A stretch of DNA of 64,000 bases from Escherichia phage DT571/2, in sequence record NC_047749.1, one strand, 5' to 3'. Position 1 is the stretch's first letter. The number at the start of each line of letters is the position of its first letter. The position numbers and the translations under genes were made by a program. Below are positions 13,205-20,623 of this stretch, one piece after another. The notes below the pieces were generated by a model. It did not search any database and was not told the DNA's origin. It was given only the letters and a program-made list of their open reading frames with translations.

Positions 13205-13240
13205 AGCCAGGTTGCTAGTCGACCTGGCTTTTATTTTATT
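13205..13240 (+). terminator. Intrinsic terminator after nrdD
   Basis: AGCCAGGT-loop-ACCTGGCT followed by TTTTATTTTATT. Confidence 0.75.
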
Positions 13241-13789: not shown

Positions 13790-14629
13790 GTGAGGAATTG
13801 TACAGTGCGTAGATTAATTATTATTAGCGGTGCAGGTTTGAGTGTTGAAAGTGGTGTACGAGCCTTCCGTACTGATACTGCTAGTGGTAAAGCATTGTGG
13901 GATGATTATGATCTAGAAGAAGTATGTAATATTCATGCCTTTCGGGGTAATTTTTACCATAAAACCCACACGTTTTACAACAAACGTCGTGAAGAGTTAG
14001 AAACTGTTGAACCCAATCTTGCACACTTGCGTATTGGTGAATGGTATAAGAAATACCCAGGTCAAGTAGTAAACTTGACTACTAACGTTGATGATCTTAT
14101 TGAGCGTGCTGGCGTTCCACATAGTGACATTCTGCACATTCATGGATACTTAAAGGAGGTTGTTGTAGCTGATAGCTACAACAGTAGTAATAAACGAATT
14201 ATTGATGTTGGGTATAACTCTATTGACCCAGATGATTATAAATGGGTTAAACCTAATGTAGTCTTCTTTGGTGAGCATGCTCCAGCGTACGCAGAAATGT
14301 ATAATATTTTTGATGGTATTACCAGTCAAGATATGATCATTATGGTTGGTTGCTCTAACCAAGTAATTAACTTCTACTGGGAATTATTCCCTGTTCTTAA
14401 TCTGACTGCTGCAAAACTTATGGTGGTTAACTACTACGATAGTGCTCTAGCGGTGGGACCAGGCTATCAAGGTATGACTCGTAGTGAGATGTACCAACTG
14501 GAAGAACGGGGTATTCCTTACTGGGGTAAAGGTGCGGTAGATGCTTTCAGTGACCCTGATTTTATTGCTCGTGTGGAAGCCCATCTAGAGGGTAGACCTT
14601 ATATGCCGGGAAAACAGATATGTCCATAG
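13790..14629 (+). CDS. Sir2-family (sirtuin-like) NAD-dependent protein
   Basis: GAGLSVESGVRAFR (NAD-binding), TTNVDDL, catalytic HG in HIHGYL, VVFFGE; no Zn Cys4 module seen; GTG start (alternative GTG at ~13805). Confidence 0.8.
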   Translation: MRNCTVRRLIIISGAGLSVESGVRAFRTDTASGKALWDDYDLEEVCNIHAFRGNFYHKTHTFYNKRREELETVEPNLAHLRIGEWYKKYPGQVVNLTTNVDDLIERAGVPHSDILHIHGYLKEVVVADSYNSSNKRIIDVGYNSIDPDDYKWVKPNVVFFGEHAPAYAEMYNIFDGITSQDMIIMVGCSNQVINFYWELFPVLNLTAAKLMVVNYYDSALAVGPGYQGMTRSEMYQLEERGIPYWGKGAVDAFSDPDFIARVEAHLEGRPYMPGKQICP

Positions 14630-15297: not shown

Positions 15298-15726
15298 ATG
15301 TTCAATAATGTATTCTCTAAAGAAGCTAACCCAATATTGGTTAATTTTTGGCGTACTCTTCCAGCCAACCTGTACAATGAGGCTATTAATGCTCTGAAAA
15401 TATGGTGTGAGAATAATGAAATCTCCTTTGCTTTTAAGGATGAGATTGAAGAAGCTCCCTGTATTGGTTTAATTGTGCAGGTAGAGGATGGCTTTGAAGA
15501 GATTATCGGATGGAAAGAGCTGGATGAAATGGGATTGGTTTTTGCATTAAACTATAAGCTATTTATGCCCAATAAACACCGTATTGTTGTTAATTATAAA
15601 ACCAGTGAATCTCCGGGCTTTCAAGTTAATGAACATTACGGTTGGTCTTACTCACCGGAAGAAGTAAATGATGGTATCCAAAGACTTCGTCGTTTTGGTT
15701 ATCAAATTCCGGGTTTAACCGCCTAA
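15298..15726 (+). CDS. Hypothetical protein, paralogue A of tandem pair
   Basis: Shares W-x-EL-x-x-MGL-x-x-ALN-x-x-LF-x-P ... PGL core with next ORF. Confidence 0.7.
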   Translation: MFNNVFSKEANPILVNFWRTLPANLYNEAINALKIWCENNEISFAFKDEIEEAPCIGLIVQVEDGFEEIIGWKELDEMGLVFALNYKLFMPNKHRIVVNYKTSESPGFQVNEHYGWSYSPEEVNDGIQRLRRFGYQIPGLTA

Positions 15727-15735
15727 GGGGACACA

Positions 15736-16128
15736 ATGGAACAAGTATATTGGCGTCAGATTGATCCTAGTTTGGTGAAGAGTGCGGAGAAGCTGCTACA
15801 ACGTTGGTTGGGGGTAAGACAAGCCTCCTTCACTTTTCCGGAGCAGCAAATAGACGATCCCTGTGTTGGTGTTTTCCTATCAGGCTACGCTAGGGAAGTG
15901 GAATTGGATTGGAATGAATTGTCTGCTATGGGTTTAATTGTTGCACTAAATTTCTCTTTGTTCCATCCACGTGGGTTGGCAATATGTCGTGTGCCTGATG
16001 ACGGTTGTTCGCCCCATCTTTTACAGGTGGAAGATGATATTTGGGAGTACCCTCCAGATATTCTCAAAGAAGCTAAAGAACAATTAAATCGTGTTGGGAT
16101 TTATGTTCCAGGCCTGAATGATGAATGA
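15736..16128 (+). CDS. Hypothetical protein, paralogue B of tandem pair
   Basis: Homologous to 15298-15726 product; AAGGGGA RBS; followed by terminator. Confidence 0.7.
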   Translation: MEQVYWRQIDPSLVKSAEKLLQRWLGVRQASFTFPEQQIDDPCVGVFLSGYAREVELDWNELSAMGLIVALNFSLFHPRGLAICRVPDDGCSPHLLQVEDDIWEYPPDILKEAKEQLNRVGIYVPGLNDE

Positions 16129-16151
16129 TTTTTATTAGCTGAACTCTGATT

Positions 16152-16176
16152 ACCGAGTCATTTTGGCTCGGTTTTC
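16152..16176 (+). terminator. Intrinsic terminator after Sir2-like operon
   Basis: ACCGAG-loop-CTCGGT followed by TTTTCTCT. Confidence 0.55.
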
Positions 16177-16219
16177 TCTATGCTCAAAGACACTGGTAGC
16201 AGCCCCTGGAAAAATTTAC

Positions 16220-16248
16220 TTGCTTGATGCTCAAAATCTTGATATAAT
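16220..16248 (+). promoter_or_regulatory. Sigma70-type promoter TTGCTT-17-TATAAT preceding ~600-nt non-coding region
   Basis: Hexamers/spacing, AAAAATTT A-tract. Confidence 0.65.
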
Positions 16249-16842
16249 ATTTATATTGAATTGAGAGACATTAGTAAAAATTGATTTTGCTAATTTTTCT
16301 TAGTGAAGCTGACAAGGGATTTACGGCGAGAGGAATCGATGACCCGTAAATAGCTGCATAAGGTACGTTGCTAGAGCTTTACGAAAAAGTTTTTTCTTGT
16401 TTACAATCCGCGATACGGAACAGTTAGGCTGCCCCATTAAGGGTTGTTTTAACTATTACTAGTGTTTATATTGCATTAGTTAACCTTCAATTAAGTGATC
16501 TGTGTACCCTGAATTCGGAAAGGTAAATCCAAACCGTGCATATTTAGCTCGTTATATAGGCAGAGCTTTATATGGGGGTGCGAACGAAAAGAGCAGCGAA
16601 TGGCGGCACGTACAGTAGTCACCTACCAATAGGATAGTGAGGACAAGTAGAATCGGCTTAGCGGCCAATGACCTAGGTTCTATTCTGTATAAGAGCGAAG
16701 AGAGCACAGCACTGAGATATGATAACTTATTCATATTGTTTGATGATAATTGATGTTTACGTAAATAGTAGTAATAGTTGTTCTATTCTTTCTGAATAGT
16801 CCTAAAGAAAAGATTTCGATTAACCAACACAGGAGTATTATT

Positions 16843-19632
16843 GTGTTTTCTATCCTCCAAGGTCACGCCGGGTTTTCTCGTGATTTAGCAACAGGTATTT
16901 GGCGAGAAATCAAAGCGGGAGATTATACCTTTGCCAAGCGATTCTCGAAAGAGCATCCAGAAGGTAAACCAGCTTCTATGCCCTTCAAATTTGATGTAAT
17001 AGAAGAGCACGACCCACAAAGCCTTGCAGAAATGTTACCACTTATGAGACGTTTAACGTCTGACCCTCATATCGTTGCGGTACGAGGTCGATGTCTTGCA
17101 CCTAAAAATAATGTGCGACGTAAGAAAGATAACTTTAATGTATCTAATCCTAGTAATATTATTGCTATGGACGTGGATGGTATCCTAGATACCGGTGGGT
17201 ACGACAAATTTAATCTTGTTGGTATGGCCCGCCACATTATTAAGATGTTGAATAGTATTAGTGAGGATATGTTTCCTCTTGATGCAGGCTTTATAGCTCA
17301 TGCATCATCTTCGGCTGGGCTAAAACCAGGTATCCGAATGCACTTAATACTAGAATCTAACGTCAAGGTAACTCAGGGTCAGCTAAAGTTCTTATTTACA
17401 TCTATCAATGATAGTAGTAAGCAAAAATTTGGTTTTGATATTGCCGACCTAGCTTATTACTCATCTGTCCAGCTCCACTATTTTGCCGACCCCTTATTTA
17501 GCGATGGTATTGTTGATCCGTTTAAAGCGGAGAGTAAGCCACGTCTGGTGTATGTTAAAGGCTCAAAAGTAAACTTACCTAATAATCTAGTTGACTATGA
17601 AACAACTAGAGGAGAGTTTAAAGAGGAATTCTACTCTTTACTCGATCAAATTAAAGGCAAAAAGATTGCTTCTGATAAAGTAGAAGAAACCATCAGCGAG
17701 TTAGAAGAGGCTGATGATGGAGTGTACTTGCGTATTATCCCCAAACTATACCATAGAGCATTAGAGGATGGTGTTGATTTTGAATGGCTAGAACGTGAGA
17801 TTAAACCAGCTTTATCTGAATATATTGCAACTAAAGATAACAGTCGTAATATTCAAGATTACTTTAATAACGGTCGCAAGCAGGCTCTCAAAGCGTTTGT
17901 TAATAATTCTAAACGTGAGATTCCACCAAATCTGAAAGGTGTTCCACTTAAGAAATTAGAAGTGGATTCTCCACCAGAAGTTCCGTACCTGAAGATTAAC
18001 ATTGTGCCCCCAAAAGGTCATATAACATTTGTTAAGGCAAGTCTTGGTACGGGTAAAACTACGGCAGTAACTAAATGGCTGGACGCAGGTGTTCTTCCGG
18101 GCAACTTTTTAGCAGTTACAAATACTAGAGCACTGGTATCTTCAAATGCCAAGAAATTTAGTGCAGGACAATACGATAAGTCTGTAGATATGCTCAACTT
18201 TAAACGTGGGGCTATTGATCGTATGTCCACAACTATTCACTCTTTGCATAAGTTCAAAAGTTTTATTGGGCAAATAGACACCATTTTTATTGATGAATGT
18301 GACGCTGTAATGAATGACCTATTATTCGCCCCTGTTGTTAAACAACGTCGCGAGTGTATTCAAGTTCTACGTGACATCCTCATGACAGCTAAGACTGTAA
18401 TCTTATCCGATGGTGATATTAGTGCGGAAACAATTGAAGCATATGGTTCTTTGATTGAGTTCGATAAACCAGTTGCATTTTACAATCACCACCGTAAAAT
18501 GTTATCAAAGGCTCATGCTTATGAATTCCCTGATGAATCCAGTATTTGGGTTGCACTTCAGACTTCTCTAGAGATGGGTGAGAAATCTATTCTAGTATCT
18601 GATTGTGGTCCTGATGAGCTGAATGAGAAGGGTATGGCACTACGTCGTAATACTGGTGCATTAGTTAAAGAAATCCATTCAAACTCCACTTCAGATGTGG
18701 ATATTCGACGTATTCTGGATTATACAACTAATGAGCTAATTGATCAACAAATTGATTGCTTATTATGTAGTCCATCCGTAACGAGTGGAGTTGACTTTAA
18801 CTATTTTGATAACGTATTTGTTATTACTAGAACCAGTAATCAGGCGCCAAACATGCGTTTTCAAGCAATCAGGCGCGACCGTGGTGCTCAGAATATCTAT
18901 TATTTTATTGATAAATCCACTAGTGGATTCTCTGCGGGTTCTGAACAATATAATATCGATGAAGGTTGGCTGGAGTTAGCACAGCAATTATATGCACGTC
19001 GCAGGGAGCTGGAGTCTAGGAACTATACTAGTACTTTACGTTATTACTTGCTTGATCAGGGTGCAACTATTGATATTTTCAGTGAAAGCTGGGGAACTAT
19101 TGAAGGTGCTGGTAAAGAATACACAGAAGAGCGAATCAAAGCTATTCTACATTCAACTCCTGATTATTGTGCTCCACGTCATGCGGATGCGTATGAGGCT
19201 AAACTACTTATTGTTCGCTATTATCATCTTGAGTCTATTAAAGATGTAACAGTTGAGCATGTTGAACAATATATCAAAGATAAGCCGAATGATCGAGCTG
19301 CATTCTTCCATAAGATGCACGAGATGTTCTGGGAAGATATTAAGAAGTGTTCAAATGTGACCATTAAACCATTCATAGAAGCTCTGAAAGGTAAGAAGAA
19401 AGATTTCTTCCTTAAAACAGGTCAGAGTGCTAACCCAAAATATGCTAGAATGTATCTTGGTATGATGGGTATTGGTAAAGATATGAACACGGAGAATATC
19501 GTAGACTGGTATAGAACCTACTGCAAAATCGAATGTATGCCAATCCCTCTCAAATTCATGACTGAAGAAGAGAAGGCTATGGCAGAAGAAGCAATGTCAG
19601 AACTAGGTGCTAGAAATGACAGTGAAGAATAA
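16843..19632 (+). CDS. Large ATPase/helicase-like protein (929 aa; Walker A GTGKTT, Walker B IFIDECD); possible replication initiation/origin-binding helicase
   Basis: GTG start with AGGAG RBS; P-loop and DExD motifs in central region; ~390-aa N-terminal domain of unknown function. Confidence 0.85.
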   Translation: MFSILQGHAGFSRDLATGIWREIKAGDYTFAKRFSKEHPEGKPASMPFKFDVIEEHDPQSLAEMLPLMRRLTSDPHIVAVRGRCLAPKNNVRRKKDNFNVSNPSNIIAMDVDGILDTGGYDKFNLVGMARHIIKMLNSISEDMFPLDAGFIAHASSSAGLKPGIRMHLILESNVKVTQGQLKFLFTSINDSSKQKFGFDIADLAYYSSVQLHYFADPLFSDGIVDPFKAESKPRLVYVKGSKVNLPNNLVDYETTRGEFKEEFYSLLDQIKGKKIASDKVEETISELEEADDGVYLRIIPKLYHRALEDGVDFEWLEREIKPALSEYIATKDNSRNIQDYFNNGRKQALKAFVNNSKREIPPNLKGVPLKKLEVDSPPEVPYLKINIVPPKGHITFVKASLGTGKTTAVTKWLDAGVLPGNFLAVTNTRALVSSNAKKFSAGQYDKSVDMLNFKRGAIDRMSTTIHSLHKFKSFIGQIDTIFIDECDAVMNDLLFAPVVKQRRECIQVLRDILMTAKTVILSDGDISAETIEAYGSLIEFDKPVAFYNHHRKMLSKAHAYEFPDESSIWVALQTSLEMGEKSILVSDCGPDELNEKGMALRRNTGALVKEIHSNSTSDVDIRRILDYTTNELIDQQIDCLLCSPSVTSGVDFNYFDNVFVITRTSNQAPNMRFQAIRRDRGAQNIYYFIDKSTSGFSAGSEQYNIDEGWLELAQQLYARRRELESRNYTSTLRYYLLDQGATIDIFSESWGTIEGAGKEYTEERIKAILHSTPDYCAPRHADAYEAKLLIVRYYHLESIKDVTVEHVEQYIKDKPNDRAAFFHKMHEMFWEDIKKCSNVTIKPFIEALKGKKKDFFLKTGQSANPKYARMYLGMMGIGKDMNTENIVDWYRTYCKIECMPIPLKFMTEEEKAMAEEAMSELGARNDSEE

Positions 19633-19849: not shown

Positions 19850-19858
19850 AAAATTTAC

Positions 19859-19887
19859 TTGCATAGTTCAAAAAATTTCTGTATAAT
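19859..19887 (+). promoter_or_regulatory. Sigma70-type promoter TTGCAT-17-TATAAT
   Basis: Hexamers/spacing; conserved downstream CATAAATTTGAGAGAGGAG. Confidence 0.65.
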
Positions 19888-19918
19888 AGATTCATAAATT
19901 TGAGAGAGGAGTTTAAAT

Positions 19919-20623
19919 ATGGCTGGTTCTCGCAGAAAGAAACATATCCATGAAATCCCGGATGAAGTCTTTAAAAAAGTTATAGAGCATCTGGAGAACG
20001 GTGGTACTAAGAAAGCAGCATGTGAGATGCTCGGCGTATCATCCAATCCGACTATGGAAAGGATGATAGAAGAGTGGCAAGATCGCCAAATTCAAGTTGC
20101 CGAGATGAAGAAAAAGAAACGTGGTACACTCATTGAAGGCATCGAGTTAGCTAACGTTATTGAACAGTATTTATCCGGTGATTCTTTTGAAGAGATTGCC
20201 GATCGTAATTATCGCTCTGTAGCAATGGTTAAATCTGTTCTGGAACGATATGGTGCTCTACTTCGTTTGAACGATATTGTAGACCCGTTGAATCCACCAA
20301 TTATTCCTGATGATGCTGTAGCAGAAGAATTTGAAGTAGGTGAGCTAGTTTGGGTTCCTGGATACCAGTGTATCGGTGAAATCAAAAAAGCAATGGATAA
20401 CCCTGTTGGTTGTTACCGTGTATGGCTTCTATCAGAAGGCAAACAACAGAATGTTCATTATATGAATTATGAATTAGCTTCTGTAAAGCATTTAGAAAAG
20501 CTAGGGGTTGACGTAAAATCTCTGGGGTATAAATGGTCCCGGGAAGAAGTTATCACACTGATTAACGAAGCTGTTAAGGCTGCCTTGAAACTTGATAAAG
20601 AAAAAGGAAAACGCCGTGAGTAA
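19919..20623 (+). CDS. Putative DNA-binding protein (N-terminal HTH-like segment)
   Basis: GGTKKAACEMLGVSSNPTMERM resembles HTH; strong promoter and GAGAGGAG RBS upstream. Confidence 0.7.
   Translation: MAGSRRKKHIHEIPDEVFKKVIEHLENGGTKKAACEMLGVSSNPTMERMIEEWQDRQIQVAEMKKKKRGTLIEGIELANVIEQYLSGDSFEEIADRNYRSVAMVKSVLERYGALLRLNDIVDPLNPPIIPDDAVAEEFEVGELVWVPGYQCIGEIKKAMDNPVGCYRVWLLSEGKQQNVHYMNYELASVKHLEKLGVDVKSLGYKWSREEVITLINEAVKAALKLDKEKGKRRE

Follow-up and report, generated by a model that had tools for sequence, protein, structure and literature searches.

Positions 16220–16842 in the genome of Escherichia phage DT571/2 (NC_047749.1), a T5-like phage (Tequintavirus), lie between an operon terminator and the replication helicase gene D2. 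Examined within a stretch of 64,000 nucleotides (nt), referred to here as the window, this region probably consists of a promoter and a ~590-nt untranslated leader of the D2 transcription unit that carries a conserved RNA fold acting in cis. The existence of a conserved structured RNA is predicted with high confidence, while a role for the fold in cis is put forward tentatively. Compensatory substitutions across phage lineages show, within the aligned sequences, that the fold is under purifying selection at the RNA level. As read from these comparisons, the functional content of the leader is this large conserved fold and not an attenuator, which the initial annotation of the locus had offered alongside a structured RNA and a replication or regulatory locus. 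The suggestion of a structured RNA or leader held in that the region is strongly promoted, noncoding and folded, but the conserved structure occupies ~16403–16799 and not the hairpins to which the initial annotation had pointed.

Comparative evidence for the fold

Loci for comparison were gathered by D2 homology and comprised 33 loci from IMG/VR, eleven from metagenomes and several phages from GenBank. The fold is a multi-helix RNA domain of roughly 400 nt (~16403–16799), situated downstream of an optional 97-nt insert. Among T5-like phages its interior (~16467–16769) occurs in two versions of equal length that cannot be aligned with one another, set between flanks that are nearly invariant. 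The type A interior is found in the window and in T5, the type B interior in fp01, SP3 and PS3-1, and a third version in Yersinia phage phiR2-01; the helices are the same across at least three such interior sequence "alleles". In helix H3, AACUAUUAC/GUAAUAGUU of the A type is replaced by AACUGUUAC/GUAACAGUU in the B type, with a G·U intermediate in T5, and other lineages carry AUUAUUAUAC/GUAUAAUAAU (DU_PP_V) and GGUUAUUAUAU/AUAUAAUAACC (My1). Helix H5 appears as CUGUG/CACAG, CUGCG/CGCAG, CUACA/UGUAG and CCAUA/UAUGG, and further compensatory replacements include CCCGU/ACGGG for CCCAU/AUGGG and AAGUGG/CCACUU for AAGGGG/CCCCUU. The same architecture, built from other sequences, is present in the Pectobacterium phages DU_PP_V and My1, in Sugarland-like Klebsiella phages and in a metagenomic contig. 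The N-terminal regions of D2 in these four lineages are 65–73% identical to that of the window, and BLASTN detected no similarity between their leaders and the leader described here.

The main test used a 23-sequence alignment of six lineage types, for which RNAalifold returned a consensus of 114 pairs. Paired cells made up 91.4% of the total (an inflated value, as discussed below), compared to 80.8% in shuffled alignments and 37–48% when the pairing partners were slid. More than half of the pairs (61/114) had changed on both sides, compared to 32.7 in shuffled alignments, none of which reached 61 in 500 attempts, and 25–32 with slid partners. The covariation score followed the same order (0.341 observed, 0.165 shuffled and 0.06–0.10 slid). 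The strong covariation at ~16403–16799 in related phages is the outcome of a check that the initial annotation had proposed, namely secondary-structure prediction combined with conservation. Restricting the analysis to the allele of the window (8 sequences) gave 139 predicted pairs, 26 of them compensatory, and in the non-A lineages 21/24 pairs of the H12–H16 block were compensatory. A covariance model of this block (R1), built from B-like sequences, recovered the phiR2-01 allele, on which it had not been trained, at full length (27.5 bits, E about 1e-4). The consensus contained 434 G·U cells and 45 A·C cells (~10:1), an excess from which the fold can be assigned to the plus-strand RNA; the minus strand had 76.3% of its cells paired, compared to the 91.4% of the plus strand.

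Structure of the RNA domain

The helices described below are on the plus strand and are predicted from consensus folds. A 5′-proximal hairpin, P1 (16270–16294; AUUAGUAAAA/UUUUGCUAAU, loop AUUGA), is predicted near the beginning of the transcript, and 8 of the 19 pairs of this helix (helix 1 of the consensus) have changed on both sides. P1 may be lengthened by pairing of UGAGAGA (16262–16268) with the U-rich tract at 16295–16301. Equivalent hairpins of different sequence occur in DU_PP_V, My1, the Sugarland-like phages, locus L048 and the Providencia phages. In T5, a second promoter-like site (TTGATT-18-TACAAT) lies across P1 and the U-tract, at about −465 relative to D2. At 16378–16407 of the window, TTTACG stands where this site has its −35 element, with equal spacing, and a promoter there would place the start of transcription at the conserved H2 domain.

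The conserved fold itself opens with H2 (16403–16447), a nearly invariant 5′ hairpin domain in which ACAAUCC pairs with GGGUUGU around GAUACGGAACAGUUAGGCUGCCCCAU, with the inner stem CAGU/GCUG. This helix (helix 4 of the consensus) is 98% paired, and half of its pairs (5/10) have changed on both sides; variants include CGGU/GCCG in L048 and AG/CU in the Sugarland-like phages in place of the GG/CC of T5. The H2 domain is 96% identical between the A and B types, compared to about 89–90% for the flanks. A pseudoknot between GGCUGC of the 5′ hairpin and GCGGCC of the H14 loop, seen by eye, was dropped, as the double change of A to G and U to C in L048 supports the local CAGU/GCUG pairing.

A central domain of ~330 nt (16450–16780), delineated by the consensus folds together with the pair counts, rises on a long stalk. 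The stalk consists of helices H3 (16450–16469/16761–16780), H4 (16473–16490/16740–16756) and H5 (16494–16505/16704–16713), from which the branches H6 (16506–16510/16575–16579), H9 (16539–16550/16563–16574), H12 (16610–16615/16685–16690) and H13 (16618–16627/16632–16644) and the hairpin H16 (16716–16722/16731–16737) are predicted to extend. Hairpin H14 (16646–16684) has the stem AGUAGAAUC/GGUUCUAUU and a large loop that contains the octamer CUUAGCGG (16657–16664). All eight pairs of the H14 stem have changed on both sides, with 97% of its cells paired, and the stem reads AAUCU/AGGAUU, GGGU/ACCC, GUGGU/ACCAC, CACCU/AGGUG or CCACG/CGUGG according to lineage. The octamer is invariant in all 23 aligned sequences and is also found in the leaders of Proteus and Providencia phages; it is one of three invariant unpaired motifs, together with GAACAGU and GAGAAGUG.

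The structured region closes with the 3′ hairpin H17 (16783–16799; CUAUUC UUUCU GAAUAG), ~45 nt before the start of D2 and ~30 nt before its Shine-Dalgarno sequence. No U-run follows H17 and the terminator scan did not flag it; DU_PP_V, L048 and the Sugarland-like phages have equivalent hairpins of different sequence. A tentative outer helix, H1, is predicted in the folds between 16391–16398 (UUUUUCUU) and 16805–16812 (AAGAAAAG) and would enclose the entire domain. Conservation of H1 as a closing helix was rejected; it is invariant within the T5-like phages and across lineages performs no better than shuffled sequence. An alternative partner is the 5′ GAGAGA.

Promoter and genomic context

Positions 16130–16900 are 97.5% identical to Salmonella phage Kenya-K44 and ~97% identical to T5 and BF23, with matches in 522 phage records. 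The gap is flanked upstream by the last gene of an operon (15736–16128, a homologue of T5.107) and downstream by a 929-amino-acid open reading frame (ORF; 16843–19632), homologues of which (T5.108, D2) are annotated as "replication origin binding protein". D2 is a bipolar SF2 helicase (PMC3632103). In the RefSeq record of T5, the homologous positions carry an annotated terminator and promoter, followed by ~470 nt without annotation.

The T5-type early sigma-70 promoter (16209–16248, plus strand) is composed of an upstream A-tract (16209–16219), the −35 element TTGCTT (16220–16225), a 17-nt spacer with the TG of an extended −10 (16240–16241) and the −10 element TATAAT (16243–16248), and is followed by the initial transcribed motif TTGAGAG (sequence 16209–16268). 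By analogy with PN25-type promoters, transcription would start at about A16255. The promoter is exactly as the initial annotation had it and is also annotated in RefSeq T5; a simple sigma-70 scan overlooked it solely because TTGCTT shares 3 of 6 positions with TTGACA. Sites of the form TTGCnn-17-TATAAT are enriched about three-fold in the window (27 compared to 9.7 expected), a number reached in none of 100 shuffles. Even where the sequence has been replaced or doubled, a promoter is retained at the same position in the 33 IMG/VR loci. Loci L006, L015 and L027 have another promoter sequence at this position, at about −525 relative to D2, and the leader of L016 (2047–2503) is a mosaic of an A-type core and a B-type 3′ spacer with two tandem promoters.

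The placement of the promoter immediately after an operon terminator was likewise borne out. An intrinsic terminator (16152–16178, plus strand; stem ACCGAGTCA/TGGCTCGGT, then a T-run), annotated in T5 and BF23, closes the operon of the T5.105–T5.107 homologues; its stem (16152–16172) has 9 base pairs (bp), 5 of them GC, with a 3-nt loop and the tail TTTCTC. From there to the start of D2 (16173–16843) no terminator-like site was found on the plus strand. The operon upstream of the terminator includes a gene of the Sir2-like family (NAD-dependent deacetylases; 13790–14629), as it does in T5 and BF23.

The D2 unit begins with a Shine-Dalgarno sequence, AGGAG (16831–16835), and the GTG start codon at 16843, so that the translation start and gene together span 16828–19632 on the plus strand, as supported by the ORF and the annotation of its homologues. 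An AU-rich spacer separates the Shine-Dalgarno sequence from the 3′ hairpin. A small local hairpin, CACAG/UUGUG (16828–16832/16841–16845), is predicted in the consensus folds and takes in the start codon. It shows little variation, with only one-sided G-U changes in the T5-like phages, and has no equivalent in the distant lineages.

From promoter to D2 the distance is 594 nt. This leader is exceptional within its class, in that the other T5-type promoters in the window are ~30–60 nt from their genes. Plus-strand members of the class include those at 13240, 16220, 19859, 20885, 22070 and 23436, and minus-strand members those at 451, 1799, 3392, 3743, 7465 and 11042; the switch of strand near 11.0–11.2 kb is a mark of divergent early transcription units. 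Directly 3′ of the D2 unit, 3.6 kb downstream of the leader promoter, is a near-exact copy of the T5 PN25 promoter (TCATAAAAAATTTACTTGCATAGTTCAAAAAATTTCTGTATAATAGATTCATAAATTTGAGAGAGGAG; 19850–19918), the end of which is 7 nt 5′ of an ATG at 19920. Between D2 and this promoter, no terminator was detected on the plus strand.

An optional insert and the attenuator proposal

Between P1 and the core of the fold is an optional insert of 97 nt (16302–16398 or, equivalently, 16294–16390; plus strand), which is not needed for the conserved fold. It was delimited by alignment with T5, BF23, SpoonbillGilly and PS3-1, all of which are missing the insert, and by a direct repeat of TTTTTCTT at both ends. 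The two copies of this 8-nt repeat lie at 16294–16301 and 16391–16398; since the tentative outer helix likewise has TTTTTCTT as its 5′ strand, an RNA with the insert has this strand twice. Among ~520 related records, 49 (about 9%) carry the insert, once each and always at this locus, on A-type and B-type interior backgrounds alike. The insert is missing from the Pectobacterium, Klebsiella and metagenomic out-groups and is thus derived. A multi-copy mobile element was considered and rejected, given the single locus per genome and the lack of terminal inverted repeats by eye.

All of the pairing elements from which a switch had been proposed are contained in this insert: the hairpin 16319–16326/16344–16351, the alternative partner at 16377–16383 and the T-run at 16390–16395. 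In that proposal, an attenuator or riboswitch-like switch between ATTTACGG/CCGTAAAT and CGTAAA/TTTACG plus T-run would govern read-through into D2. The pairings are present where they were described, ATTTACGG and CCGTAAAT forming an exact 8-nt inverted repeat, and the 8-bp stem is retained in all insert carriers examined, with one change of G-C to G-U and a variable loop. The alternative, though, amounts to only 6 bp, AU-rich and within chance expectation, that close a 27-nt loop, and while both CTTTACG and the T-run exist, AAAAAG stands between them. Nor was a hairpin and U-run terminator detected behind these hairpins, and the arrangement is absent from T5, from about 90% of relatives and from the out-groups. 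There was no Rfam match to a riboswitch or leader and no leader peptide, and neither an ORF nor a start codon was conserved. The evidence thus gives no support to an attenuator, the insert being lineage-specific and without a terminator after it, and this explanation is regarded as very improbable.

Coding potential, RNA families and replication signals

The absence of a plus-strand ORF of 60 or more amino acids before the GTG at 16843, as initially annotated, was confirmed, with the longest ORF in the gap reaching 38 amino acids. No ORF of the gap retains its position, frame or start codon, even when phages of 92% identity are compared. One candidate leader peptide, 'DTEQLGCP', in a frame open through the conserved hairpin, was rejected; it has no start codon in DU_PP_V and L048, and the changes within it are RNA-compensatory and non-synonymous. 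SpoonbillGilly, PS3-1, Chazly21 and Stubb carry annotated small coding sequences (CDSs) within the gap, and leader CDSs occur at 1534–1635 and 1765–1896 in L004, at 1534–1635 and 1671–1823 in L005, and at 221–520 and 526–660 in L116. The initial annotation had named a conserved small protein gene in related genomes as the finding that would count against a noncoding RNA; the annotated CDSs are not conserved. As they differ between close relatives and overlap the covarying helices, the small 'hypothetical protein' CDSs in the D2 leader are probably mis-annotations.

Small protein genes, for which these annotations are the supporting observation, can be considered together with an element acting at the level of DNA, such as a cruciform or the hairpins of a single-strand origin. 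D2 is related to the UL9-type helicases, which recognize origin hairpins in herpesviruses, and this relationship would suit a DNA element. The substitutions in the gap, however, compensate for pairing and are not synonymous, the ~10:1 ratio of G·U over A·C is that of an RNA, and long-range helices closing ~300 nt suit RNA better than duplex DNA. Explanations of this kind are the least probable of those considered and can hardly be credited.

Scans of Rfam 15 with window positions 15500–17500 and 12 related loci (E-value limit set to 5 or 10 for the individual scans) returned chance-level matches only, each at least 18 bits under the gathering score, such that the covariance-model scan proposed at the outset did not place the RNA in a family. 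ARAGORN detected no tRNA or tmRNA. No match to the leader was returned by BLASTN among 5,426 E. coli genomes or 72,556 plasmids, and a full-text literature search found no description of an RNA element before D2 of T5.

A promoter-driven transcript could also form an R-loop or primer beside the initiator-helicase gene, as an RNA associated with an origin of replication. The RNA II of ColE1 is a long noncoding, structured RNA fed by a strong promoter, an arrangement like that of the D2 leader, and the T4 oriF/oriG promoters and the T7 primary origin would be further analogues. The leader adjoins a gene annotated as an origin-binding protein, and the origins of T5 are without sequence-level mapping (PMC3632103; PMC10055335). 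Recombineering data, on the other hand, suggest that unidirectional replication starting at one genome end dominates, and not replication from the centre (PMC10055335). No iterons were found in the gap, in which repeats are limited to two-copy matches of 9–19 nt, and its composition (GC 0.27–0.48) has no outstanding AT-rich block or skew feature. The suggestion of a replication locus thus found no support at the DNA level, and the G·U bias points to RNA; an origin-associated RNA is accordingly judged improbable.

Leaders of more distant phages

The leaders of Proteus phages (Stubb and PM135) and Providencia phages (PR1 and PSTCR5) are 615–763 nt long and have a P1-like hairpin, and CUUAGCGG lies in a hairpin whose stem differs. 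Serratia phage Kamaji and the Ermolyevavirinae Vibrio phages have a strong promoter and an unannotated gap of 430–1100 nt before D2. The Vibrio leader is 93–100% conserved across genera and shows a few compensatory pairs, and it has undergone the same kind of interior replacement. In Vibrio phage Ceto (L114; alignment columns 104–196), an unrelated insert of ~93 nt occurs just 3′ of the 5′ hairpins of the leader, a place analogous to that of the 97-nt insert.

An nhmmer sequence profile had no matches in the Proteus, Providencia, Serratia or Vibrio leaders, and the alignment of the Providencia pair held no compensatory information. With the H12–H16 covariance model neither the A type nor the deeper lineages were recovered, even when filters were switched off, so the case for deep homology rests on position, CUUAGCGG and its covarying stem only. 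A motif scan of IMG/VR placed every true match upstream of D2 and found no copies elsewhere; ~22 extra matches without the other motifs were consistent with chance.

Function of the leader

In the favored reading, transcription would begin near 16255 and read through into D2, so that the fold would form the 5′ portion of the D2 mRNA. It may then act in cis, as a stabilizing element or as a platform for binding a protein or ligand, to set the output of D2 during early infection, and the AU-rich spacer and Shine-Dalgarno sequence downstream would stay accessible.

Several observations weigh against this reading. We infer the start site, the read-through into D2 and the lack of processing from the sequence. 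The structure was tested on the alignment from which it had been derived, so that the percentage of paired cells is inflated, and the folding energy of single sequences is unexceptional (z = −1.9 and −1.0). Across lineages, no conserved pairing over the D2 ribosome-binding site was found, and with no conserved occlusion of that site no regulatory switch is evident. The homology of the Proteus, Providencia, Serratia and Vibrio leaders to the T5 fold is unproven, and locus L050, with a more distant D2 (43% identical), is without such a leader. Proteus phage Stubb has a consensus promoter (TTGACA-18-TATAAT) 66 nt before D2, which suggests that D2 expression is possible in the absence of the upstream RNA and favors an autonomous RNA. 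The fold is also self-contained and allele-swapping, which favors a processed, trans-acting RNA.

Such an RNA would be a large stand-alone noncoding transcript, stable and either cut or ending near the 3′ hairpin (~16800), that acts in trans as a decoy or scaffold for a host or phage partner, and its place before D2 would merely reflect conserved gene order. This explanation accommodates a self-contained multi-helix domain with invariant loops and bounding hairpins at its 5′ and 3′ ends, as well as the interior alleles that keep the helices, a pattern of elements under diversifying pressure. It is likewise compatible with the promoter that D2 of Stubb has for itself downstream of the RNA, with the lack of conserved occlusion of the ribosome-binding site and with a size that fits the class of large ornate RNAs (PMC12286853). 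It is met by the absence of a terminator after the fold, by the failure to find the RNA away from D2 and by processing for which there is no evidence. As gene order in the family is highly conserved, the linkage to D2 argues neither way. Overall, a stand-alone RNA is considered unlikely.

A broader proposal is that the leader represents the first member of a so far undescribed class of large structured RNAs, located before the initiator helicase gene throughout the Demerecviridae and having an autonomous function. Such a class would measure ~0.4 kb in T5 and possibly up to 1.1 kb in the Vibrio phages. This proposal is doubtful, as are the two functions that it might imply: activating or priming the T5 replication origin, or serving as a trans-acting RNA in host-phage conflict, the latter being hinted at by the allele-like turnover of the interior around invariant loops.

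Returning to the leader itself, T5 has long served as a model phage and its early promoters are in wide laboratory use, yet the RNA element before its replication helicase gene was undescribed. A fold of 400 nt that is kept by compensatory evolution across genera, beyond the reach of BLAST alignment, must have a function. Its position at the entry to the replication module therefore offers a concrete, mutable handle on the control of D2 expression or of replication initiation. Large structured RNAs borne by phages are few, and the fold is a further candidate for one; several small 'hypothetical protein' genes annotated in the gap are in turn flagged as probably spurious.

Comparison with known systems

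The T5 early promoters PN25, P25, P26 and P28 share with the D2 promoter the TTGCTT −35, the 17-nt spacer, TATAAT, the A-tract and TTGAGAG, but other T5 early promoters drive genes at the short distances noted above, whereas the D2 promoter heads a noncoding leader. The HK022 put sites and the EAR element resemble the D2 leader in being folded RNAs that follow directly on a strong early promoter and open a transcription unit. They are only 70–120 nt long, compared to the ~400 nt of the D2 fold, which has no Rfam match, and no terminator for such an RNA to override was found on the plus strand within or just after D2.

Like the operators of T4 gene 32, gene 43 and regA, the D2 leader would be a structured 5′ RNA in the mRNA of a replication protein, and it could bind its own protein product or a partner. 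The T4 operators, however, span tens of nt and overlap the ribosome-binding site, while the far larger D2 fold stops ~30 nt short of a Shine-Dalgarno sequence that appears open.

The leaders and preprimers of plasmid initiators (ColE1 RNA II, R1 repA/CopT and IncI-alpha repZ) are, as here, long folded noncoding RNAs that lead toward a replication-initiation function, and in those systems long-range helices and loop motifs are essential. They differ in that the D2 leader has no convincing minus-strand antisense promoter or RNA, that a lytic phage has no copy-number logic, and that there is no sequence or Rfam similarity.

The ornate RNAs (GOLLD, ROOL, OLE, raiA and HEARO) share with the D2 leader a length of hundreds of nt, many covarying helices and invariant loops, and GOLLD and ROOL are phage-borne, as is the D2 fold. 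The D2 leader does not match the Rfam models of the ornate RNAs and is smaller than GOLLD, and its place is the leader 5′ of a helicase gene, not the vicinity of tRNA arrays. The D2 leader fold thus resembles both the ornate RNAs and the leaders of initiator genes without belonging to any of the families tested.

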